Source: a candidate division TM6 bacterium GW2011_GWF2_28_16
GTDB taxonomy: Bacteria; Patescibacteriota; Microgenomatia; UBA1400; PJMF01
Assembly: GCA_001029715.1 (NCBI GenBank)
Contig: CP011212.1
Coordinates: 617,715 to 681,714, forward strand
Length of the DNA stretch: 64,000 nt
Direction of reading: 5' to 3'
This document shows, piece after piece, positions 1,640 through 62,605 of the stretch. The stretch's first letter is position 1. Each line of letters starts with the position of its first letter. The notes below the pieces were generated by a model. That model saw only the letters and a program-made list of their open reading frames with translations. It searched no databases and was not told the origin of the DNA. Position numbers and translations under genes: made by a program.

Positions 1640-2524
1640 ATGAACTTAATTCCTCGAAAACTCATCGTTACCCATCATGCCCCAGACCTTGACGCAATTG
1701 CTTCCGTTTGGTTGCTGAAGCGCTTCGATGGCCAAAGATATGCAACCGCTAAAGTTGCTTTTGTTAATCCCGGCGATACTATTTCCTTAGAAGAAGCCGA
1801 AAAAGAATTTAATTGCCAACTTCATGAAATCACTCATGTCGATACTGGTCTTGGCGAGTTCGACCATCATCAAGCAGAAAAAGCTGGACTAGAAATTTGC
1901 GCTGCTACTTTGGTTTTTGATTATCTCAAACAAGTTAGACCAGAAATTGCCAATGATCTTGCTTTAATCGAGATCATTAAAGTTATTGTCGATGTTGATC
2001 ATTTTGGAGAAATCTATTGGCCAGAGGCTAAAGAAAGTCGTTTCGTTTTCACTTTGCACGAACTCATTCATGGTCATGAATCCATCGACTCCACTGATGA
2101 CGACTCTCAATTACATTTCGGCATGAAAGCTCTCGACTGTGTTTATGCCGAAATGACCAATCGCATTAAAGCTGAAGAAATTATCTCTACCAAAGGCATT
2201 GAATTTGAAATTGAAGAAGGCAAATGTTTAGCCATGGAAACTCAGAATGATGAAAGCATTAAATTAGCTCAAGTCAAAGGCTATATTATGGCCATTCGCA
2301 AAGACAGCGAATATGGCCACATTAGAATTAAAGTTCGCCCTGATGCAAAATTAAATTTAGATAAGCTTTATAAAGCTATTCAAGAAATTGATCAAAAAGC
2401 TACTTGGTTCTATCACGCCAGTGGCAAAATGTTGCTCAATGGCTCAATTAAGCATCGTAATCAAACCGCTAGCTCACTCAGTCTCAGTGGAATTATTCAT
2501 CTTGTACAAAAGTTATATAATTAA
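1640..2524 (+). CDS. DHH-family phosphoesterase (NrnA/RecJ-like fold)
   Basis: HHAPDLDAIAS and GEFDHHQ motifs typical of DHH phosphoesterases. Confidence 0.6.
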   Translation: MNLIPRKLIVTHHAPDLDAIASVWLLKRFDGQRYATAKVAFVNPGDTISLEEAEKEFNCQLHEITHVDTGLGEFDHHQAEKAGLEICAATLVFDYLKQVRPEIANDLALIEIIKVIVDVDHFGEIYWPEAKESRFVFTLHELIHGHESIDSTDDDSQLHFGMKALDCVYAEMTNRIKAEEIISTKGIEFEIEEGKCLAMETQNDESIKLAQVKGYIMAIRKDSEYGHIRIKVRPDAKLNLDKLYKAIQEIDQKATWFYHASGKMLLNGSIKHRNQTASSLSLSGIIHLVQKLYN

Positions 2525-5043: not shown

Positions 5044-6558
5044 TTAAAGAAAAAAATCCCTAAAATTAAAGGCCTCCAGCACATCTTCTTTTTGAATCGT
5101 TTTTTTCTCTGCCAAATCCGCAATCGTTCTGGCTACTTTGAAAAGTTTGAAATAACCACGAGTGGATAATTTTTGGTGACTAGCCATTAGATCAAGAATT
5201 TTCTTGGCTTCTGTGGAAATCTCACAAAAATGTAAGACTGCCTGTGAATCTAAATTTGAATTATTAAGAAAAGCTGTTTTAGCGTAGCGTTGACGCTGTA
5301 GGGCAACTGCTCTCTCAACTCTTTTTTTGATCTGCAAAGAACTTTCCGCTCTATTCTCAACCATTTCCTTAATTTCGATCGCCTCAATCCTCAACATTAA
5401 GTCAATACGATCAAGAATCGGACCAGAAAATCTACTGCGATAGCGTTGCAGATCATATTCGCTACAACGACATTTATGTTTGCTACCAGCAAAACCGCAG
5501 GGACAAGGATTGCTGGCAGCAACCAGAGTAAAATTAGCTGGATAAATACATCTCTGCTTGCCACGATTGATTTCAATCAAGCCAGTTTCCAAAGGTTGAC
5601 GTAACATTTCTATAAGTTGGTGTTTAAATTCGGCAAATTCATCTAAAAATAAAATTCCCCGATGCGCCAAACTAATTTCTCCTGGCGTCTGATAAAAACC
5701 GCCGCCAATTAAAGCGATTTGCGAAATGCTTTGATGAGGCGAACGAAAAGGGCGACTGCTAAGCAAAGAATTTTGTAGTAAACCACAGAGCGAATAGATA
5801 CGATTCACTTCTAGAAATTCCTCTTCGCTTAAATCTGGCAAAATCGATAGTAAAGCCTGAGCTAATAAACTTTTGCCAGAACCAGGCGAGCCAAACATCA
5901 GGAGATTGTGTCCGCCAGCCGCCACAATTTCCAAAGCTTTCTTTGCCTGCGCGTGACCAAAAATATGAGCAAAATCTATTTGCTTAGTTTGCAAGTTAAT
6001 CAGTTTTTGAGAAGGCATAGCTTTGCGCAGACTCAAGCACCCACGCGTAAAAGCCAAAAACTCCTGCAAAGAAACCAGCGGATAAAACTCTAAATTACTA
6101 ATTTTTGGCAACTCACCTACATTTTCACGAGGAAAATAGATCTTTTTAAAACCCATAGTTCGCGCCGCTAAAACAATGGAGACAAAACCTTTGATTTTTC
6201 GCAATCTTCCATCGAGAGCTAACTCACCCAGAAATAAAGAATCTTCGGTATTAAAAGTCACTTCGCCATATAATTTCAGCATCGCCACAGCGATAGCCAA
6301 CTCAACACTGCTAGATTTTTTATCCAAATCTGCTGGTGCTAGATTGACCACTGTTTTCTTCGGTCTAATCCTAATTCCACATTGCGAAAGGGCAGCCGTG
6401 ATGCGTTCTCTAGATTCATCGATCACCCGATTAGCCAAGCCAATAATAATAAAAGAAGGCTTGCCAAAAATAGTTTTAATCTCAACTTCAATCTTAATTG
6501 TCTCAAGACCTTTATTGACTGCACTAAAAATTCTGCCCGACATAAAAATGCTCCTCAA
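5044..6558 (-). CDS. comM: YifB/ComM-family Mg-chelatase-like AAA+ ATPase
   Basis: N-terminal Lon-like/ChlI domain and Walker A GSPGSGKS. The CPCG…C…C zinc motif and a C-terminal Mg-chelatase ChlI region are present. Confidence 0.85.
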   Translation of the reverse strand: MRSIFMSGRIFSAVNKGLETIKIEVEIKTIFGKPSFIIIGLANRVIDESRERITAALSQCGIRIRPKKTVVNLAPADLDKKSSSVELAIAVAMLKLYGEVTFNTEDSLFLGELALDGRLRKIKGFVSIVLAARTMGFKKIYFPRENVGELPKISNLEFYPLVSLQEFLAFTRGCLSLRKAMPSQKLINLQTKQIDFAHIFGHAQAKKALEIVAAGGHNLLMFGSPGSGKSLLAQALLSILPDLSEEEFLEVNRIYSLCGLLQNSLLSSRPFRSPHQSISQIALIGGGFYQTPGEISLAHRGILFLDEFAEFKHQLIEMLRQPLETGLIEINRGKQRCIYPANFTLVAASNPCPCGFAGSKHKCRCSEYDLQRYRSRFSGPILDRIDLMLRIEAIEIKEMVENRAESSLQIKKRVERAVALQRQRYAKTAFLNNSNLDSQAVLHFCEISTEAKKILDLMASHQKLSTRGYFKLFKVARTIADLAEKKTIQKEDVLEAFNFRDFFL

Positions 6559-9336: not shown

Positions 9337-9420
9337 GCCGCGATGGCGGAATTGGTAGACGCGCGAGACTTAAAATCTCGTACTAGCGATAGTGTAAGGG
9401 TTCGATTCCCTTTCGCGGCA
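9337..9420 (+). tRNA. tRNA-Leu (anticodon UAA), long variable arm
   Basis: Acceptor stem GCCGCGA/TCGCGGC and anticodon loop CTTAAAA. A long extra arm is present and the T-loop is GGTTCGATTCC. An extended -10 (TGATATAAT, 9316-9324) lies upstream. Confidence 0.85.
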
Positions 9421-9469
9421 CGACTCTAGGGGCAAGATCACAAGTCTCGCCCCTAGATCAAATTAAAAA

Positions 9470-9543
9470 CGGAGAGTAGTTCAGATGGCTAGAACGTACG
9501 CTTTGGGAGCGTAAGGTCGCAGGTTCGAGTCCTGTCTCTCCGA
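9470..9543 (+). tRNA. tRNA-Pro (anticodon UGG)
   Basis: Acceptor stem CGGAGAG/CTCTCCG, anticodon loop TTTGGGA and T-loop GGTTCGAGTCC. Confidence 0.85.
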
Positions 9544-9550
9544 CAAATAC

Positions 9551-9580
9551 AAAAAAGCTGGCTATATGCCAGTTTTTTTG
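9551..9580 (+). terminator. Rho-independent terminator after tRNA-Pro
   Basis: AAAAAAGCTGGCtatatGCCAGTTTTTTT. Confidence 0.7.
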
Positions 9581-9727
9581 TATTTATTGGTGGAGGCAAA
9601 GGAGTCGGAACTATTTTAAGGTTCCGACGGAGAGAACGAGTTTTTTGTAAAACGAGTTCCCTCCTAGCACTCGAAGAGTGGAGTCCTACAAAAACCCAAA
9701 TCTCAAATCATAGTATAATTATCACAA

Positions 9728-10519
9728 ATGATTGAAGACAATTCATCTAAACAAGTTAACTCAGAAAAAGGTCATAAACTTAAAAAAATAATTTGGCCAA
9801 TACATAAAGAACAATACGAAGAAATTAACTTTTCTTCGATTACTGGTTTAAAAGAAATAGAAGCAAAACAAAAATCCATAGATGAAATTAATAATTTTTT
9901 AATTGACATTTTGCAATTTGCTCAAACAGTATTAAGCACGCCTGGTCCAAATACCCTACATATTAGTGCAGAACTAGATATTGATGTTGTCGCAACATTT
10001 TCTATTGATGATGAAGGAATTCCGCAGATAGATCTCTCAAAAATCTATTATGATTCCATCATAAATCATATCTCTCTTATTTTAAGCAAAAAATATTCGC
10101 CTGATAAAATAGTTAGTTTTGGAGAAAACGAAGAAATCAAAGAGATTTTTAAAATAGGAGTTGGTTTGGTTGTTTCTCAAGTTGTCTCTTCTTTAGGTCA
10201 TGAAATGTACCACTTGCGACAGGCTCATCAAGATTATGAATCTTATCAAGAAACTGTACAAGAAAACTGGCCACATCGTTTTTGGCGAGAAAGAGCAAAA
10301 GCAACCAATAATGCAGAACTAAAAAATCATGGAATGGATGTCTATAAAAATTCTTTAGGAGAGCGATCTGCAAACGGCTTTGCACTTAGATTTGTTTTGG
10401 AATACAAGAAAAAAATACTTGCCAAAAATGATAAAGATAGGTCTTTAATTGAAAAACTATTTTTATCTGGTGTAGATAAGGCCATTGAGATCTTCAAAAA
10501 AGATTTTATAAAAAATTAA
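9728..10519 (+). CDS. Hypothetical protein with an HExxH (zincin-like) motif. It is the first gene of an AT-rich three-gene block.
   Basis: LGHEMYHLRQAH motif, no signal peptide, and very low GC with AGA/ATA-rich codon usage unlike the flanking murC and ABC genes. Confidence 0.5.
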   Translation: MIEDNSSKQVNSEKGHKLKKIIWPIHKEQYEEINFSSITGLKEIEAKQKSIDEINNFLIDILQFAQTVLSTPGPNTLHISAELDIDVVATFSIDDEGIPQIDLSKIYYDSIINHISLILSKKYSPDKIVSFGENEEIKEIFKIGVGLVVSQVVSSLGHEMYHLRQAHQDYESYQETVQENWPHRFWRERAKATNNAELKNHGMDVYKNSLGERSANGFALRFVLEYKKKILAKNDKDRSLIEKLFLSGVDKAIEIFKKDFIKN

Positions 10520-10640
10520 CTCCTAATTTTTTATAACTTTTAAAAGTCTCCATTAATTGCAGAGTCCTACAATTTCCCTCACACCCTTGAATCACAAGGC
10601 TAAACCATCTACTATATTTGTAGTTACAATAAAGGTACTG

Positions 10641-12416
10641 ATGGCAATAATGGATGAGCTCCAAATAAATCAACAAAAAGAACCTGAAAAAAAAGTTGCT
10701 GGGGAAGATTTTTTTGCTCGTGAAGCCGTACTTATTCAAGATTTTGCCTCAGGTCTACCAGTAACATTCGAGCCTGGAGATGGCTGGCAAATCGATCCAG
10801 ATAAAGGGAAAGCCAACTATGATCCAAAATTTTTTACTGACAAAGGCTATTCACAATCTCAGACACTGTTTGCCACCCTACACGAAGTAGATCATTTTAA
10901 AGAAGCTACTCAGGCTAAAAAATCACCAAAAGATAAAGCTATTTGGGAAGCGCGACAAGAAAAAGAGCAGGCTAATCGTCGCTACCATTCACTGGATAAC
11001 TGCATAGATGATGTTGGCAACAATTATCGTGTTTTACAATTTGCTCCTGCACTAAAAGAAGAAACCAGGCGACTGTATGCTGAACAATTGACTAAGAGCA
11101 CAGACCTAACCAAACATTCTAGACACATGCAGTTGGCCTACGCCATCTTACGTCAAGGGATGTTGCCTCAAGATCAGATTCAAGTTGCAGAGGAAGTTGA
11201 ACAAGCACTCCAAGAACTAAAAAATGTTAAAGGGAAAAAAGGTAGCTACGACATAATTAAAATGGTCACTGATCCTAATTGCAACCCAGCCACCAAAAGG
11301 AAACTAACTGAAAAATATATTGATCCGATTTTTGATAAATTATTCGAACAAGATAAAAATGATAAACAGAAAAACAAAGACAACGATCCCAATCAACAAA
11401 ATAATGATAACCAAAGTAATTCAGAGGAAGATTTCACAGATGAATATGATGAATTTGACGAATCAATGCCGCAGGGATTTGAACAAGAACAAATAGAATC
11501 CGTTTCTAAACCAGAATTTGGTAAAGACATCGCTGCTCGTCAACAATCAGGATACGAGGCTGAACATCAAGTGTCACAAAAAGATATGCTTGATTACAAA
11601 CAAGAATTTCAAAAAGTTATTCAATATATGGAACCTATCAGAGAACAATTTAGAAGAATTGTCGCAGAGCGTTTGATTCCTAAACGTAGACTTATTTCTG
11701 GTCGTGATGAAGGAATTATGATTAATCCCGGTTTAGCGGGGATTGCGCAAGAAGCTTTCAATAGAGGTCAATATGATGGACCATTTTTTAATGATTTTGA
11801 GGGCAGAGTTGTACGAGAAGAACTACCATCAGCATTTGAAATTTCTGGAGTATTTGATCGTAGCGGATCGATGGCATCTGGTAACAGAATTGAAGAACAA
11901 AGAAGGGCGGCTATATTACTAATGGAATCTCTACAAGAATTCATGGATCAACCAGAAGTTAAAGAAAGACTCTTAGACCCAGATCTATATGCTTCATGTG
12001 AAATAAGGTCTTTTGGTGGAACGAAAGAAAATGTGGTTATCAAACCTTTCTCAAAAGAATTAGCTGAGAAACAAAGAATTGAAGTCTTTAAAGTTTTAAA
12101 TGATTGCTCTGGATGGTCTACCGATGACGATGTTTCTCTTGGACAAATATTAGATGAGATGAAAGCCAGAGAGCAGTTTGAGACAGGATATTTAAATAAA
12201 GTAAAAACTAGGAAAATTAAAAAAATAGTGGCTGTTTTTTCTGATGGTGGAAGTTCAAACCAAACAGTTTTCGATCAGAGAATACAAACACTTTCTGAAA
12301 TGGGCGTACAAGTCGTCCAGTATCGAAAAATTGATGGAGTAACTGAATTTGTACCAAAAATGTCAGAAGTTCTTAAACAAGGGTTGGATGAACTCTGCTA
12401 TCATGAAGAAAGGTAA
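10641..12416 (+). CDS. vWA (MIDAS) domain protein with an N-terminal HExxH putative metallopeptidase domain (DUF2201_N/DUF2201-like architecture). The ORF-track start at 10557 probably over-extends the N-terminus.
   Basis: An N-terminal LHEVDHF motif and a low-complexity acidic/N-rich linker. The C-terminal vWA has a MIDAS DRSGSM (DxSxS) motif plus downstream T and D positions. An ATG at 10641 is preceded by AAAGG. Confidence 0.6.
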   Translation: MAIMDELQINQQKEPEKKVAGEDFFAREAVLIQDFASGLPVTFEPGDGWQIDPDKGKANYDPKFFTDKGYSQSQTLFATLHEVDHFKEATQAKKSPKDKAIWEARQEKEQANRRYHSLDNCIDDVGNNYRVLQFAPALKEETRRLYAEQLTKSTDLTKHSRHMQLAYAILRQGMLPQDQIQVAEEVEQALQELKNVKGKKGSYDIIKMVTDPNCNPATKRKLTEKYIDPIFDKLFEQDKNDKQKNKDNDPNQQNNDNQSNSEEDFTDEYDEFDESMPQGFEQEQIESVSKPEFGKDIAARQQSGYEAEHQVSQKDMLDYKQEFQKVIQYMEPIREQFRRIVAERLIPKRRLISGRDEGIMINPGLAGIAQEAFNRGQYDGPFFNDFEGRVVREELPSAFEISGVFDRSGSMASGNRIEEQRRAAILLMESLQEFMDQPEVKERLLDPDLYASCEIRSFGGTKENVVIKPFSKELAEKQRIEVFKVLNDCSGWSTDDDVSLGQILDEMKAREQFETGYLNKVKTRKIKKIVAVFSDGGSSNQTVFDQRIQTLSEMGVQVVQYRKIDGVTEFVPKMSEVLKQGLDELCYHEER

Positions 12417-12421
12417 CTTTT

Positions 12422-14854
12422 ATGCAAGACATTAATGGAGAAATATCTCAACCATTTGCACCAGGTATATATCGAAAACTAGAAACGGCAGCTGGATCAA
12501 TAAAATCATTATTTGAATCAAAAATTAAAACGGAAAGCTCATCTAGCACAGTTGAAGAGCGAGCTAATACTTTACTCCAGTTATTATTAGATAAAGTTGA
12601 GCTACAAGTTGATATTGCTCGTCGAGCAACAACAATTGTGGATGCTTTAGGTCTAGATGGAAGTGCTCGCCAAAGAAAACTACAAGAACTTAAGTCATTA
12701 AATAATCAATCTTCAATAAATGAAAATAAGAACTCTAATGAGAGTCAATTGTCCGCAGCGAATATAAACGAAGCAGATATTGTAAGTGGTAAATTATCGA
12801 TGTCTGACTTAATGAAAAGTATTAAAACAACTCCAAAGACTGAAGGCATCAATTCACAAACAGAGCAAGAAAACCAGCTTTTAGCGGAGAGTAAAAGACA
12901 ATTATCTAAAATAAATGAACAGGCTGAAATACTAATAAACGATACTCAGGTTGTTGAGCATTATCAAAACATGCACCAAGAAAAACTAAAACTATACCGT
13001 AAAGTCAGAGAAGCGGCTTCTGGCAAGAAAGCTATTCGAGATATTGAAATCATGCAAGAGAGATTAGCTAGACAAGTTTTTCTAAATAAACGCACTTTTT
13101 CTCCTGCTGAAGAAGCGGTTACTAAACAAAATCAATTAATTTCAAAGGCGATTGAAAAACGCATTGCCGACCTTATATCAGATCCTGAGGTTTTTGATTT
13201 AATGAGATGGCGACAATTGAGAGAATATCAAATCGGTCTAAAAAAAGACAGATTTGCCGAAACTCCAAGCAGAACAAAAATGTTAGCTGAAATTAGGCAA
13301 ATGTGGTCAGAAGGTAGAAAAGTTTTAGCTACTGGTCCAACTGGAAGTGGTAAAACAGAATTATTTTTTCATGCTTCAAGATCTTTGCTTGGTAGCGAAC
13401 CAGAAAGAGCTACTGGTCATGAACTATTAACTTCATATGAAATATATGGCAAAGCTACTGGTAAAGGGTTTGAGCCAGGACCACTCACAAGAGCTATTGA
13501 TAACAATAAACCTTTTGTGTTGGACGAAATTAATCTAGTACCAAATAAAATTTTAATGCGTTTAAAGACTGATCTTAATGCTAGACCAGGGCAAGAAATA
13601 ACTATTCAAGAAGAAAATGGAGTGCGACATCAAGTCAAAGATAATTTCGTGGTTGGCGCCACAGCCAACGTAAAAAGCGAAAAACATCCAGATCGAGAAA
13701 AACTTGATCCAGCCCTAGTGCGTATGTTTGAACCGCTTCCAGTTGATTACCTACCACCAGAAGAATTGCACGACATGATGCTAGCTCTATTAATGGATAT
13801 AAAAGGTGGTATTCAGCTTTCAAGCAAAGATGATTTAGCTGCCTTAGCTGAACTATGTATGTCCACTACATGGACGCAAAAAGCGTATCAAGGATATGAA
13901 GTTGAATTAAATAACGGTGACAAACTCTATGCTCGCGGTGGGGAATCTACTGGCAAAATAGCCACACTAAGAGAAGCTGTTCTCGATCCAGGCAAAGCAC
14001 TGGATATGGTTAATGGTTGGGATGATTCAAGATTGAAGGGTAAAACACTTAGAGAACATATTAATGCCAAAATTATTCAATTTGTTAAAAACGAAAACTT
14101 TCCTGAAGAAGATCGTTATCACTTAATCCGCATTTTCGCCTTAAATGAATTTTTGAAAGGAGTAGACGTTAATGAGCTAGGAATTAGCGGCCTAGATCAA
14201 GCTACTTTAGATGCTTGGAATGGCTTCACTGGTCGTAAAGTGAAAGCAGGAGATTTATATCTCGATGCCAATAAAGTCGCCAAAATTGATCCTTTCGGAA
14301 CCGTAAGAAGGCCTGATGGGTCAGACGTTGATGATCTACTTGGCGAAGATGAAACAGAAGAAATGGAAGATGAGGACATAGACGAAGAAAACCATCTTGC
14401 GATTGGAATAAAAGCATTTGAGCAAAGAAGAAGAGAGAAAAACCAATCTACACAAATTGATCCAGAGGCAAAAGAAATTCTCGATCAACTAGATAAATCT
14501 GAGCTAAAAAAATTTCTAAAACGTGAAGATAAATATCAAATTTATCCAGACAAACTCAATGATATATATCTTATGTATCCATCTACTTTAGAAGAAATCA
14601 TAAGAAAATATAGAGAAATATTCTTTGACCAAGATACTCAGGAAAATATAGGCAATGTGTTCGATTTATTGAAAAGGTTTATAATACTAGTTAAAGAAAT
14701 AAAACAATCTAATGTTAATTTTCCAAAAGATGTAATGATAATTGCGAAAAAAACAGATAGTATTTTAGAAACATCTAATAGTGCATCTACAATGCCTACC
14801 ACTAGAGAAATGTGTGAAAAACTTGTCAAACAAATTTTTGAGCTAGCTAAGTAG
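12422..14854 (+). CDS. Large AAA+ ATPase of the MoxR/AAA_5 (dynein-related) class, partner of the upstream vWA protein
   Basis: The central AAA module has Walker A GPTGSGKT, Walker B FVLDEIN and sensor/arginine finger-like positions. A ~300-aa N-terminal coiled-coil/low-complexity region and a ~350-aa C-terminal extension with the acidic tract DDLLGEDETEEMEDEDIDEEN flank it. Confidence 0.65.
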   Translation: MQDINGEISQPFAPGIYRKLETAAGSIKSLFESKIKTESSSSTVEERANTLLQLLLDKVELQVDIARRATTIVDALGLDGSARQRKLQELKSLNNQSSINENKNSNESQLSAANINEADIVSGKLSMSDLMKSIKTTPKTEGINSQTEQENQLLAESKRQLSKINEQAEILINDTQVVEHYQNMHQEKLKLYRKVREAASGKKAIRDIEIMQERLARQVFLNKRTFSPAEEAVTKQNQLISKAIEKRIADLISDPEVFDLMRWRQLREYQIGLKKDRFAETPSRTKMLAEIRQMWSEGRKVLATGPTGSGKTELFFHASRSLLGSEPERATGHELLTSYEIYGKATGKGFEPGPLTRAIDNNKPFVLDEINLVPNKILMRLKTDLNARPGQEITIQEENGVRHQVKDNFVVGATANVKSEKHPDREKLDPALVRMFEPLPVDYLPPEELHDMMLALLMDIKGGIQLSSKDDLAALAELCMSTTWTQKAYQGYEVELNNGDKLYARGGESTGKIATLREAVLDPGKALDMVNGWDDSRLKGKTLREHINAKIIQFVKNENFPEEDRYHLIRIFALNEFLKGVDVNELGISGLDQATLDAWNGFTGRKVKAGDLYLDANKVAKIDPFGTVRRPDGSDVDDLLGEDETEEMEDEDIDEENHLAIGIKAFEQRRREKNQSTQIDPEAKEILDQLDKSELKKFLKREDKYQIYPDKLNDIYLMYPSTLEEIIRKYREIFFDQDTQENIGNVFDLLKRFIILVKEIKQSNVNFPKDVMIIAKKTDSILETSNSASTMPTTREMCEKLVKQIFELAK

Positions 14855-14874
14855 TCTTTAAATATAAATCAATT

Positions 14875-16638
14875 ATGTCCATCTTTCTCCGCCTCTACCG
14901 CTTCATCTGGCGACGCAAATGGCTCTTCATCATCGGCACTATCCCCATGATCCTAGCCCTCGTCCTCAGCAACCTCTCTCCATTCTTCGTCAAATGGCTA
15001 ACTCAAGCTGTTCAAGACGGCCAACTCGACCACGCCTTTAACCTCGTTCTCATTTTTGGCCTCGTCCTAGTCGCTAGCAACCTACTTGAAAACATTGGCT
15101 TCTTCATCACTGACAAAAACATGGTCGGCACCTCCACCGACATTTCCCATGCCGTCCTCACTCATATCCACAACCTAGACTTTGCCTATCACACCAACAA
15201 AAGCTCCGGCAGACTCATCAGTCTTATGAAAAGGGGCGACGACGCCTTTTTTACCTACTACGACATTGTTAACCGCCAATTTTTAGGCATTATCATCAGT
15301 TTCGCTGTCATGTTTACTGCTTTCGCACGCCTCCGTTATGACTACTTACTTTTTGCAAGCTGTCTTCTTATCATTACCATTCTCGTCGCCTTTTTTCTGA
15401 TCAAAATCAACATCCGCAAGCGTATTCTTTTCAATAATGCTGACGATGACGTCTCTTCGGCTAGAGTAGACAACTTAGTCAATTTCGACACCGTCAAATA
15501 TTTCGCCAATGAAAAATTCGAGCAAAAACGTTTTTCTAACCTGCTCAACATTTGGAATAAACGCCTCCAAGATTACTTCTTCACTTTCCGTTATTTTGAC
15601 GGCATCGTCGGTAATCTAATTAATATTTCTTTGGTCGGTATTATGTTTCTAGCAGTTCGTGATCTGCGCAGCGGACAAATTGTCCTAGCAGATTTCCTCT
15701 TAGTAACTACTTTTTCGATGACCCTTTTTCCCAAAATGATGCACCTACTTTTTAGTCTCCGTGAATTAGCCAAAAAACACACTGATATCTCTACCTATTT
15801 AAACTTACTCGACGAAGAAGTCTCCGTCAAAGATCCAGTTAATCCGCAAAAAATCGAGTCCGTAAAGGGAGAAATCACTTTCGACCAAGTCGGCTTTGCC
15901 TACGAAAACAAACAGTTAGTTTTGGAAGATTTTTCTCTGAATATTAAAAGTGGCGAAGCCATCGCTCTGGTCGGTTTTTCCGGCGCCGGCAAAACCACTA
16001 TCGCTAAATTACTGATGCGTATGTACGACCCAACCCAAGGTAAAATCTTAATTGACGGTGTAGAAATTAACAACTTACGCAAAGATGATTTACGCAAAAT
16101 GGTCGGTGTCGTTCCTCAAGATCCTTTGCTATTTAATAACACTGTTTATTTCAACATTTCCTACGCTAATCACCAAGCCAGTAAAGAAGAGGTCCTTGCT
16201 GCTTCCAAAGCCGCTCAGGTCGATGTTTTTATCAAAGACCTTCCTAACGGCTATGAAACCATCGTCGGAGAACGTGGCATTAAATTATCTGGTGGTCAAA
16301 GACAACGCCTCGCTATCGCTAGAGTTCTCCTAGAAAAACCAAAAATTATTGTCATGGACGAAGCCACTAGCTCACTCGATAGTGCTTCAGAAAAAATCAT
16401 TCAAGAAGCTTTCTGGGATCTAGTTAAAGATAAGTATAATCCTCGCACCAGTATCATCATTGCTCATCGCCTTTCCACTATCATGCAAGCCGATCGCATC
16501 GTCGTCATGGATGACGGCAAAATCGCCGAAGTCGGCAGCCACCAAGAACTTATCGATAAAGACGGCGGCATCTACCAAAGACTCTGGTCACTGCAGAAGA
16601 ATGGGTTTATAGGCGACGGAGAGGACGAATCTTCATAA
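14875..16638 (+). CDS. ABC transporter, fused permease/ATPase (MsbA/exporter type)
   Basis: Six-TM N-terminal domain and Walker A GFSGAGKTT. The ABC signature LSGGQRQRLAIARVL, Walker B IIVMDEATS and the H-loop are present. This gene is visibly more GC-rich than its neighbours. Confidence 0.9.
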   Translation: MSIFLRLYRFIWRRKWLFIIGTIPMILALVLSNLSPFFVKWLTQAVQDGQLDHAFNLVLIFGLVLVASNLLENIGFFITDKNMVGTSTDISHAVLTHIHNLDFAYHTNKSSGRLISLMKRGDDAFFTYYDIVNRQFLGIIISFAVMFTAFARLRYDYLLFASCLLIITILVAFFLIKINIRKRILFNNADDDVSSARVDNLVNFDTVKYFANEKFEQKRFSNLLNIWNKRLQDYFFTFRYFDGIVGNLINISLVGIMFLAVRDLRSGQIVLADFLLVTTFSMTLFPKMMHLLFSLRELAKKHTDISTYLNLLDEEVSVKDPVNPQKIESVKGEITFDQVGFAYENKQLVLEDFSLNIKSGEAIALVGFSGAGKTTIAKLLMRMYDPTQGKILIDGVEINNLRKDDLRKMVGVVPQDPLLFNNTVYFNISYANHQASKEEVLAASKAAQVDVFIKDLPNGYETIVGERGIKLSGGQRQRLAIARVLLEKPKIIVMDEATSSLDSASEKIIQEAFWDLVKDKYNPRTSIIIAHRLSTIMQADRIVVMDDGKIAEVGSHQELIDKDGGIYQRLWSLQKNGFIGDGEDESS

Positions 16639-59742: not shown

Positions 59743-60069
59743 ATTAAAAAGTATAAAGTAAATAAGCCATATTGACTATTGTCTTTTAACAAACTTGCCC
59801 TTAAAATAACTCCCACTTAACAGTTTTGTTCTCAGTAGGGATAAAATTCCTCAGCGTTTAAGAGATTAGGGAAAGCTAATAAAAGTTTTCTTTCCTTTTT
59901 TTGCCTTTTGCGCTTAGCTTAGTTGAGTAAAAGATCTTTAAAAAGTAAACAGCCAAATAATTGGAAATAAATATAGTGATAGAAAGTGTGCAAGGATTTT
60001 TCTCCAAAAGAGAAAGATCCGTCAATTTTTTAAGTAAATCAAATTAGTTTTTATAGAGCTAATCAAACT

Positions 60070-61557
<1,488 letters not shown>

Positions 61558-62461: not shown

Positions 62462-62535
62462 GGGTGTGTAGCTCAGATGGTTAGAGCGCAGTCCTGATAA
62501 GACTGAGGTCCTTGGTTCGATTCCAAGCACACCCA
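62462..62535 (+). tRNA. tRNA-Ile (anticodon GAU)
   Basis: GGGTGTGTAGCTCAGATGGTTAGAGC…CCTGATAAG…GGTTCGATTCC…CACACCCA. Confidence 0.85.
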
Positions 62536-62605
62536 CTATAGAGCGAGAATGGCGCCTGTCTAGTACTCTAAAAGTACTCTATCTTTCCTCAAAGGTGCTT
62601 GAAAT

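Follow-up and report, generated by a model that had tools for sequence, protein, structure and literature searches.

MoxR-type ATPases encoded beside von Willebrand factor A (vWA) proteins have been proposed to gate peptidases or other effectors, and cyanobacteria and purple sulfur bacteria are proposed to diversify such couples by diversity-generating retroelements (DGRs) (PMC7159879, PMC10907252). Kaur et al. 2020 omitted the candidate phyla radiation (CPR) from their multicellularity statistics and did not describe the family treated here (PMC7159879). For the CPR, Wu et al. 2018 noted a class of DGR targets, UVR4, that matches a 'Midasin' AAA motif (PMC5758913), and 'AAA ATPase-CLec' DGR targets in CPR and DPANN genomes go back to Paul et al. 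2017, as cited by Dore et al. 2024 (PMC10907252). Here we analyse a locus of the candidate division TM6 bacterium GW2011_GWF2_28_16, in a stretch of 64,000 nucleotides (contig CP011212.1, positions 617,715 to 681,714; hereafter the window). Three genes follow one another there on the same strand: g1, which codes for an orphan HExxH protein, g2, which codes for a protein with a zincin-like domain and a vWA domain, and g3, which codes for an AAA_5 ATPase. An original prediction, made from the letters of the window, had joined all three in one system. Our analysis indicates that the locus is a real, coherent and probably functional system of two genes, g2 and g3. By analogy with described systems, the reading that we favour, and that we consider as good as an even bet, is that g2 and g3 form a self-contained, ATP-dependent sensor-effector (conflict) cassette of two proteins, found mainly in the CPR so far. 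This reading follows the vWA-MoxR conflict logic and the DGR-diversified sensors already proposed (PMC7159879, PMC10907252).

The comparison of strains separated the pair from g1. A relative of g1 was found on two short contigs (L014 and L015; L numbers denote the loci fetched for comparison), directly upstream of the orthologue of the ABC-transporter gene that begins 20 nt past g3 in the window, with no vWA or ATPase gene in between. The DNA of these contigs aligns to the window at 9515/9588-10535 and then straight to 14871-16638, with 90-93% identity (blastn). Strain L016 carries g2 and g3 beside the same ABC transporter, about 91% identical across the pair and aligned from 10572 onward, and has in place of g1 a toxin-antitoxin-like pair, made up of a 101-aa open reading frame (ORF) and an ORF with a dnstrm_HI1420 domain. 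Because g1 and the pair occur independently of each other in both directions, the system is one of two genes, and the three-gene system first proposed does not hold. The pair is accessory and not a housekeeping operon beside a cognate enzyme, since it is present or absent between strains about 90% identical and its neighbourhoods are unrelated. The universal housekeeping operon that the original prediction had named as its own alternative was checked on these grounds, and no conserved client gene was found. Inspection of the cassette junctions revealed no obvious integration-site or attachment repeats. Between tRNA-Pro and the ABC-transporter gene (9545-14874), three strain states were observed: g1 only, g1 with the cassette, and the toxin-antitoxin-like pair with the cassette.

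The product of g1 has a single homologue, 90% identical, among 5.8 billion proteins, and gave no match in Pfam, NCBIfam, PADLOC, PHROGs or PDB sequences. Alignment of g1 with the N-domain of g2 by hhalign yielded a probability of 0.45%, the two being alike only at the five-residue motif. With 0.005 HExxH motifs expected by chance in a protein of its size, the motif of g1 may be meaningful. Over the 47 ORFs of at least 150 aa in the window, four HExxH were observed versus 0.37 expected, an excess unlikely to be due to chance, and such a motif is by itself no proof of a fold. Beyond g1 and g2, HExxH occurs among the large ORFs of the window only in a 294-aa ORF at 1640-2524 (+), which has two (HEITH at residue 62 and HELIH at residue 140). 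A system in which g1 would act as a free-standing zincin with g2 and g3 could appeal to the adjacency and common direction of the genes and to this motif that chance hardly explains. It has to be set against a lone homologue that sits by the ABC transporter without the pair, a closest pair-bearing strain with other genes at the place of g1, the absence of a g1-like gene from all others of the ~60 loci, the 121-nt gap before g2 and the lack of detectable similarity between g1 and the g2 N-domain. It is refuted as a conserved system, and we give it next to no credence: g1 is not part of the g2-g3 cassette. In L001, the pair is preceded by a 261-aa gene, which was considered as a counterpart of g1 and rejected, being unrelated to it.

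The pair itself recurs widely. A word-indexed search returned 37 g2-like and 31 g3-like proteins, many of them sharing contigs, and an exhaustive profile search with the g2 N-domain returned 498 cluster representatives, of which 341 had E <= 1e-10; almost all of the 498 measure 600-780 aa and share the architecture of g2. About 60 loci were fetched and their genes were marked with hidden Markov models (HMMs) built from our own alignments; a contig scan with one narrow peptide pattern had yielded 4 loci only, and the broad alignment A4 was too divergent for locus mining. Of 34 loci whose context was informative, 29 have the zincin-vWA gene next to the ATPase gene, and the stop codon of one gene often overlaps the start codon of the other. 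Of the trio for which neighbourhood mining had been proposed, g2 and g3 travel together, and g1 accompanies them in none of the fetched loci. When the ORFs flanking 26 cassettes (within 5 kb) were clustered, no recurrent third protein besides DGR genes emerged. The neighbours of full pairs were unrelated between loci and included type IV secretion system (T4SS)/pilin genes, a Prim-Pol gene and housekeeping genes. A phage origin of the family was rejected on account of its absence from IMG/VR viral contigs, where one generic AAA_5 match was the only hit. Most loci are metagenomic contigs that bear no taxonomic label. Named records are few and almost all from the CPR: they comprise Pacebacteria/Paceibacterota, Berkelbacteria, Levybacteria and a single metagenome-assembled genome (MAG) labelled Gammaproteobacteria, a label that may be a binning or labelling error.

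Some loci depart from the common plan. In the MAG labelled Gammaproteobacteria, a zincin-vWA gene without an ATPase gene (L005:8001-9737, on the same contig as L011; the short contig L006 has the gene as well) precedes a 170-aa ORF in a region with GIY-YIG, NYN, resolvase and Fic genes. In the Berkelbacteria relative (L012/L024:538-2272), the vWA gene is split into ORFs of 522 and 79 aa, through either a frameshift (a possible pseudogene) or an assembly error. Four paired loci resolve only if UGA is read as a sense codon. In L043, L048, L050 and L053-L057 the ATPase, reverse transcriptase (RT) and vWA genes are broken under the standard bacterial code and full-length with UGA as sense, which suggests an alternative genetic code in these lineages.

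The most informative feature of the locus, its kinship with DGR-diversified ATPases, is not visible from the window alone; the window's copy has no retroelement. In L009, a relative with 31% identity, the gene order is ATPase, small ORF, RT and zincin-vWA gene. The end of this ATPase gene, including its last codons (variable repeat, VR, 5251-5373), recurs 442 nt downstream as a 123-nt copy rich in AAC codons (template repeat, TR, 5693-5815). The repeat was read as the TR/VR pair of a DGR because 14 of its 15 mismatches sit at adenines of the downstream copy. The pattern was present in 11 of 13 RT-bearing loci, with repeats of 113-124 nt and the VR without exception at the very 3' terminus of the ATPase gene; the counts of mismatches at template adenines were 24/25, 14/14, 12/12, 17/19, 14/15, 14/14, 14/17, 18/19, 13/13 and 16/18. 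Complete nested DGRs were found in L009, L026, L030, L037-L040, L042, L046, L049 and L051, and three ATPases of ~1110 aa (L037, L039 and L040) have two VRs served by a single TR. Two layouts occur, namely ATPase-TR-RT-zincin-vWA and zincin-vWA-ATPase-RT with the RT on the opposite strand, the DGR (TR, small ORF and RT) lying usually between the ATPase and zincin-vWA genes. The small ORF is the sole other recurrent family. It lies between TR and RT on the strand opposite the RT in 7 of 9 loci, the exceptions being L029, where it is on the opposite strand but past the 5' end of a reverse-strand RT gene, and L056, where it shares the strand of the RT. Judging by position, it could be the putative Avd accessory gene of a CPR-type DGR. 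L031 (493-1243 and 3834-4584) and L051 (3816-4556 and 8600-9340) each have a duplication of ~750 nt from the 3' part of the ATPase gene. In L051 the TR also matches a VR-like segment within the duplicate, which points to a second target gene.

Between g3 and the L009 ATPase, identity is 35% over 334 aa (E 9e-52), from ahead of the AAA core to the post-AAA region and excluding the tail. In a neighbour-joining tree of ATPase cores, midpoint-rooted, without bootstrap and thus indicative only, the RT-less clade of the window is nested among DGR-bearing clades, and its nearest outgroups (L026, L029 and L030) have an RT, a CLec-type tail and the same gene order. Judged by sequence, the g3 family is the one described from the CPR as 'AAA ATPase-CLec' DGR targets, a relationship that the original prediction had missed and that is the strongest clue to function. 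The family is already known as a DGR target from Wu et al. and from Dore et al. citing Paul et al.

The tail of the window's own g3 is hypervariable. Compared in 50-aa windows with the L016 orthologue, residues 1-650 were 86-98% identical and the last four windows 56, 40, 30 and 30%. The core differs by 7.8% at the nucleotide level, and third codon positions account for 71% of these changes, a sign of purifying selection; in the last ~470 nt, 42% of positions differ, evenly across codon positions, and blastn found no match for window positions 14478-14851 in the strain comparison. The boundary is sharp and falls just after the D-L-L motif and acidic run (residues 633-656). The stretch that relatives diversify by DGR is therefore fast-changing in this clade too, and the tail probably changed by allele replacement or by very rapid divergence. 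If the window instead held a decaying remnant, in which a one-time DGR cassette drifts without function after the loss of its RT and CLec domain, the nesting of the RT-less clade among DGR-bearing clades, the frameshifted vWA gene of L012/L024 and the solo vWA gene of L005 would be as expected. Decay does not sit well with two intact ORFs, with catalytic motifs that are all invariant across the RT-less clade, with a core under purifying selection or with the diversity of this clade, many members of which are 40-60% identical and have kept the gene pair. We consider it very improbable.

The sequence of g3 is that of an AAA_5 ATPase, as had been predicted. Pfam AAA_5 matched residues 301-436 with 42.9 bits (curated cut-off 22; E 6.4e-11), and most homologues are precomputed as PF07728. 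In alignments A2 and A6 (16-22 homologous sequences), Walker A (G305-K311), Walker B (D368-E369), N416 and R434 were invariant. N416 may be sensor 1 and R434 an arginine finger or sensor 2, by position only. On the basis of these invariant motifs, g3 is predicted to be an active ATPase. The extension of ~300 aa ahead of the AAA module, also part of the original prediction, is present; its sequence suggests helices or a coiled coil, and distant ATPases are extended too, Walker A starting near residue 215 in L009 and near residue 300 in L013. Conservation in the homologue alignments holds to about residue 640 and then collapses, D638, L639 and L640 being invariant or nearly so. The acidic C-terminal tail once described for g3 is in fact an internal acidic stretch (residues 633-656) followed by a variable domain of ~150 aa.

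Against solved structures, the g3 family profile matched the AAA modules of midasin best (E 4.6e-14), followed at a distance by NorQ (E about 1e-4) and CobS (0.019). In addition, phrog_249, named 'porphyrin biosynthesis' in PHROGs and which we take to be CobS-like, matched residues 173-453 (E 3.3e-11), so that annotation transfer could mislabel g3 as a cobalt chelatase. These matches place g3, as far as its sequence tells, in the AAA_5/MoxR-midasin clade of AAA+ ATPases. The weaker ones, together with a CobT_C match in one distant member and the typical association of an AAA_5 ATPase with a vWA protein bearing an acidic linker, could point to a housekeeping chaperone or metal-insertion couple of the NorQ/NorD, CbbQ/CbbO, CobS/CobT or CoxD/CoxE type, in which the HExxH would hold a metal for a distant client. 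However, the flanks hold no conserved gene for a client enzyme, strains that are nearly identical either have or lack the cassette, and g3 exceeds the ATPases of these couples 2.5-3 times in size and has N- and C-terminal regions specific to its family. A fixed client also fits poorly with DGR hypermutation in relatives and tail replacement here. Such a maturation couple thus seems improbable to us, if less so than a decaying remnant.

The product of g2 consists of a zincin-like N-domain, an acidic and polar linker, a helical segment and a vWA/MIDAS domain, in this order, and its full-length AlphaFold2 (AF2) model has a mean pLDDT of 82. The C-terminal part is a vWA domain with a Rossmann-like fold. 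Pfam gave a weak vWA match on g2 alone, distant homologues carry PF00092, and the family profile matched solved vWA domains, the MIDAS domain of midasin being the best solved match of this part; the full-length model matched nothing but vWA structures in the PDB. The canonical MIDAS predicted for g2 is complete (DxSxS...T...D), its residues D406, S408, S410, T494 and D535 are invariant in the g2 alignment, and 25 of 26 cassette partners have the whole motif. The linker has low pLDDT at residues 256-258 and varies in length across the alignment.

The N-domain is less certain. Neither the 26 close nor the 36 distant sequences deviate at H81, E82 and H85, while E88 is invariant among the close ones alone; HExxH is carried by 22 of 26 cassette partner proteins, one clade having HExxxH. 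From these residues and the MIDAS, g2 is, like g3, predicted to be active. Modelled alone (pLDDT 87, pTM 0.83), the domain has three short beta-strands (residues 42-60), a long helix bearing the HExxH (72-92) and then a helical bundle. Foldseek returned no significant match for this model; the best were the selecase minigluzincin, anthrax lethal factor and 3cmn, and no account of 3cmn as a zincin was found in the literature. The profile of the domain had no match in PDB sequences. A Pfam scan of 37 g2-family members, with thresholds for the DUF2201 check of E <= 1 for g2 and E <= 0.01 for the other 36, found no family for the N-domain, peptidase families and DUF2201_N included. Scans of all three proteins against Pfam, NCBIfam, PADLOC and PHROGs yielded AAA_5 and a weak vWA match but neither a zincin nor a DUF2201 family. 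The DUF2201_N/DUF2201 architecture suggested for g2 is not borne out at the level of sequence, with neither PF13203 nor PF09967 matching g2 or its 36 relatives. Fold searches lend the zincin assignment weak support. Going by the model, a zincin fold is plausible but not proven. The HExxxH variants (for example HEIKCH and HEIRAH) occur in the zincin-vWA proteins of L013, L027, L028 and L029 and in proteins P0031-P0033. The extra residue should alter the geometry of the metal site, and in these proteins the domain may lack activity or act in another way.

If g2 and g3 do make up a sensor-effector cassette, we infer that the two proteins are physically coupled, that g2 has peptidase activity on some substrate, that the tail of g3 has a ligand and that the whole serves in defence. 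g3, as a midasin-like AAA_5 protein, would presumably be a ring-forming remodeller, and its C-terminal tail would be the target-recognition module that binds a variable ligand. MIDAS domains of integrins and midasin bind acidic ligand residues. g2 might accordingly dock on g3 through its vWA/MIDAS domain, perhaps on the conserved acidic D-L-L-x-E-x-E segment of g3, a candidate ligand of the MIDAS site. Ligand binding at the g3 tail would lead to ATP-driven remodelling of g2, by which the peptidase would be unmasked or delivered. The output would be the zincin-like metallopeptidase domain of g2, which could cleave an invader protein, or a host protein in dormancy or abortive infection. Many relatives rewrite the tail by the DGR inside the cassette, and the window holds an RT-less form whose helical tail differs between strains through replacement or very fast divergence. 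The conflict or regulated-proteolysis role put forward in the original prediction remains the best fit for the function that we propose.

Several observations weigh against the sensor-effector cassette. The 64-kb window contains neither an RT nor a TR/VR-type repeat, and within these 64 kb its own g3 does not appear to be a DGR target. The g3 tail did not match an HMM of CLec tails and is not CLec-like, and a 'sensor' role of the tail in the window's clade would be carried over from relatives by position and variability only. The HExxxH clade hints that catalysis may be dispensable. Five distant ATPase loci with good context have no visible vWA partner, and L005 has a solo zincin-vWA gene. The island-like context is weak, consisting of a variable spot adjacent to tRNA genes and a toxin-antitoxin-like pair in one strain. 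Finally, the PADLOC-DB 2.0 defence models gave only P-loop-level matches to the locus proteins (mad8 0.0017, DinG 0.0069).

A different use of a variable tail must be considered. CPR and DPANN DGR targets have been proposed to serve host interaction (Paul et al. 2017, via PMC10907252), and the g3 tail could recognise the host cell of a CPR episymbiont, the machine then remodelling or processing attachment or uptake proteins. This would agree with vWA/MIDAS domains being classic adhesion modules, with the relative that lies beside T4SS/pilin genes and with a tail that differs between strains. It agrees less well with the sequences of g2 and g3, which lack a signal peptide or membrane segment, with the need of an AAA+ ATPase for cytoplasmic ATP, and with secretion-gene neighbours that are not conserved. 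We regard host recognition as unlikely, though as a stronger contender than a maturation couple. Returning to the sensor-effector cassette, we advance more tentatively, as a possibility well short of even, that AAA ATPase-CLec proteins, the commonest class of CPR DGR targets, are the sensor subunits of a two-protein, ATP-driven protease switch, made up of a midasin-like ATPase and a zincin-fused MIDAS adaptor, and act as anticipatory, antibody-like immune receptors inside the cell that bring their own effector. The window would then hold a retroelement-independent version whose tail is renewed by allele replacement.

Table. Positions of the genes and parts discussed; window coordinates, except for the small ORFs, which are given by locus.
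Feature	Position	Strand	Description
tRNA-Leu and tRNA-Pro	9337-9544		upstream of g1
g1 ORF	9728-10519	+	263 aa, HEMYH
Present/absent g2-g3 cassette segment	10536-14870	.	4.3 kb, from L014/L015/L016 alignments
g2 ORF	10641-12416	+	591 aa from ATG 10641 (start in public record)
g2 N-domain	10704-11390	+	residues ~22-250, zincin-like
HEVDH of g2	10881-10895	+	H81-E82-x-x-H85, E88 downstream
g2 linker	11346-11528	+	residues 236-296, low-complexity, 20 D+E and 16 N+Q of 61
g2 vWA domain	11826-12395	+	complete MIDAS: DRSGS 406-410 = 11856-11870, T494, D535
g3 ORF	12422-14854	+	810 aa, AAA_5 ATPase
g3 N-terminal extension	12422-13246	+	residues 1-275, moderately conserved
FAETPSR motif of g3	13253-13273	+	residues 278-284, pre-AAA, invariant in g3 homologues
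g3 AAA_5 core	13322-13729	+	Walker A GPTGSGKT 13334-13357; Walker B DE 13523-13528
g3 post-AAA helical region	13730-14296	+	residues 437-625, family-specific, 61-77% column conservation
g3 D-L-L motif and acidic run	14318-14389	+	residues 633-656, core/tail boundary, 16 D+E of 36
g3 hypervariable C-terminal tail	14372-14851	+	residues ~651-810, position of relatives' DGR variable region
Small ORF	L009:5816-6412	-	
Small ORF	L029:6372-6764	+	
Small ORF	L038:3110-3343	-	
Small ORF	L039:11421-11798	-	
Small ORF	L040:4760-5176	-	
Small ORF	L046:10311-10673	-	
Small ORF	L049:10272-10742	-	
Small ORF	L051:4892-5410	-	
Small ORF	L056:10415-10759	-	

At the locus itself, the positions of the ORFs confirmed that the three genes are co-directional, and all motifs first listed for them are present: GHEMYH in g1, LHEVDHF and DRSGSM in g2, and GPTGSGKT and VLDEIN in g3. 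Their tight spacing is true of g2 and g3, with 5 nt from stop to start, but not of g1 and g2, which are 121 nt apart. An in-frame TTG upstream of g2, at 10557, is an alternative start that would give a protein of 619 aa. The tRNA-adjacent location was also confirmed, tRNA-Leu and tRNA-Pro lying directly upstream of g1. The composition, described before as atypical, is so for purine skew alone, which is elevated; the G+C of the three-gene region, 0.36, lies inside the window's range of 0.31-0.47. Horizontal transfer inferred from an odd G+C was rejected, the G+C being equal to that of the surroundings. Promoter and terminator scans of the locus gave counts no higher than shuffled expectation. 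None of the three proteins has a segment above 1.4 on the Kyte-Doolittle scale (19-aa window), and no membrane or secretion signals were seen; this absence of hydrophobic segments suggests a cytoplasmic location. Elsewhere in the window, a full-length 16S rRNA gene (60069-61556) is followed by tRNA-Ile (62462-62536) and is usable for precise phylogenetic placement.

Our literature search turned up no account of the conserved zincin-vWA partner, of a DGR lodged between the pair or of a clade that lacks the RT and has swapped tails; this finding is provisional, as Paul et al. 2017 is known through citation only. The locus was initially called an undescribed system, which has to be qualified: the ATPase family is published as a DGR target, and it is the zincin-vWA partner and the RT-less form that we have not found described. 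The CPR are unusually rich in DGRs, which mainly target AAA ATPases whose C-terminal end varies. That these ATPases are encoded with a conserved MIDAS/zincin partner, often with the DGR in between, leads to a model for their function that can be tested, in which a sensor acts through an ATPase switch on a protease. If the model is true, the vWA-MoxR logic, known from multicellular bacteria, extends to ultra-small symbionts and can be reduced to two genes. The strain-level tail swapping of the RT-less clade provides a comparison set for retroelement-driven and recombination-driven diversification of the same receptor. For annotation, the locus should be treated as two genes and not three, and a DUF2201-like or NorQ/NorD-type maturation-pair label should be avoided.

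Five kinds of known systems invite comparison. Proteins with DUF2201_N (PF13203, a putative metallopeptidase) and DUF2201 (PF09967, VWA-like) are encoded next to MoxR ATPases. They share with g2 the order of parts, HExxH then vWA-like, and the neighbouring AAA_5/MoxR gene; unlike them, the family described here has 0 of 37 members matching PF13203 or PF09967, lengths of ~600-780 aa and a long acidic linker. The chaperone couples NorQ-NorD, CbbQ-CbbO, CobS-CobT, RavA-ViaA and CoxD-CoxE likewise place an AAA_5/MoxR ATPase beside a vWA/MIDAS partner, and weak direct matches to NorQ, CobS and NorD were obtained. The pair differs from them in the lack of a nearby client enzyme, its strain-level presence and absence, a hypervariable or DGR-diversified tail, the extra HExxH domain on the vWA protein and the long N- and C-terminal extensions of the ATPase.

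With the AAA ATPase-CLec targets, g3 shares its family (35% over 334 aa, E 9e-52, to the L009 ATPase with its VR), a midasin-like AAA module and named records that are almost all CPR, whereas the window's g3 has no CLec tail, TR/VR or RT within 64 kb. The vWA-MoxR ternary systems (Kaur 2020, PMC7159879; Dore 2024, PMC10907252) resemble the pair in that a MoxR-clade ATPase and a vWA protein are encoded together, with peptidase domains, a frequent link to DGRs and a proposed logic leading from sensor through ATPase switch to effector. In contrast to them, the g2-g3 cassettes have no third component (VMAP, iSTAND, FtsH or beta-propeller), none being shown by Pfam in g2 or g3 either. The diversified domain is on the ATPase here and on the vWA protein there, and the peptidase-like domain of the vWA protein is an N-terminal zincin-like one here and a C-terminal trypsin or caspase there. 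The ATPase is here 2.5-3 times larger, and the hosts are CPR as against multicellular bacteria. Finally, midasin (Rea1/MDN1) is the best solved match of both the AAA_5 module of g3 and the MIDAS domain of g2. It has an acidic, D/E-rich segment ahead of its MIDAS domain, and the acidic linker of g2 likewise stands before its vWA domain. Midasin is, however, one eukaryotic polypeptide of ~5000 aa with six AAA modules that works in ribosome biogenesis, whereas the cassette consists of two bacterial proteins with one AAA module and an added zincin-like domain.

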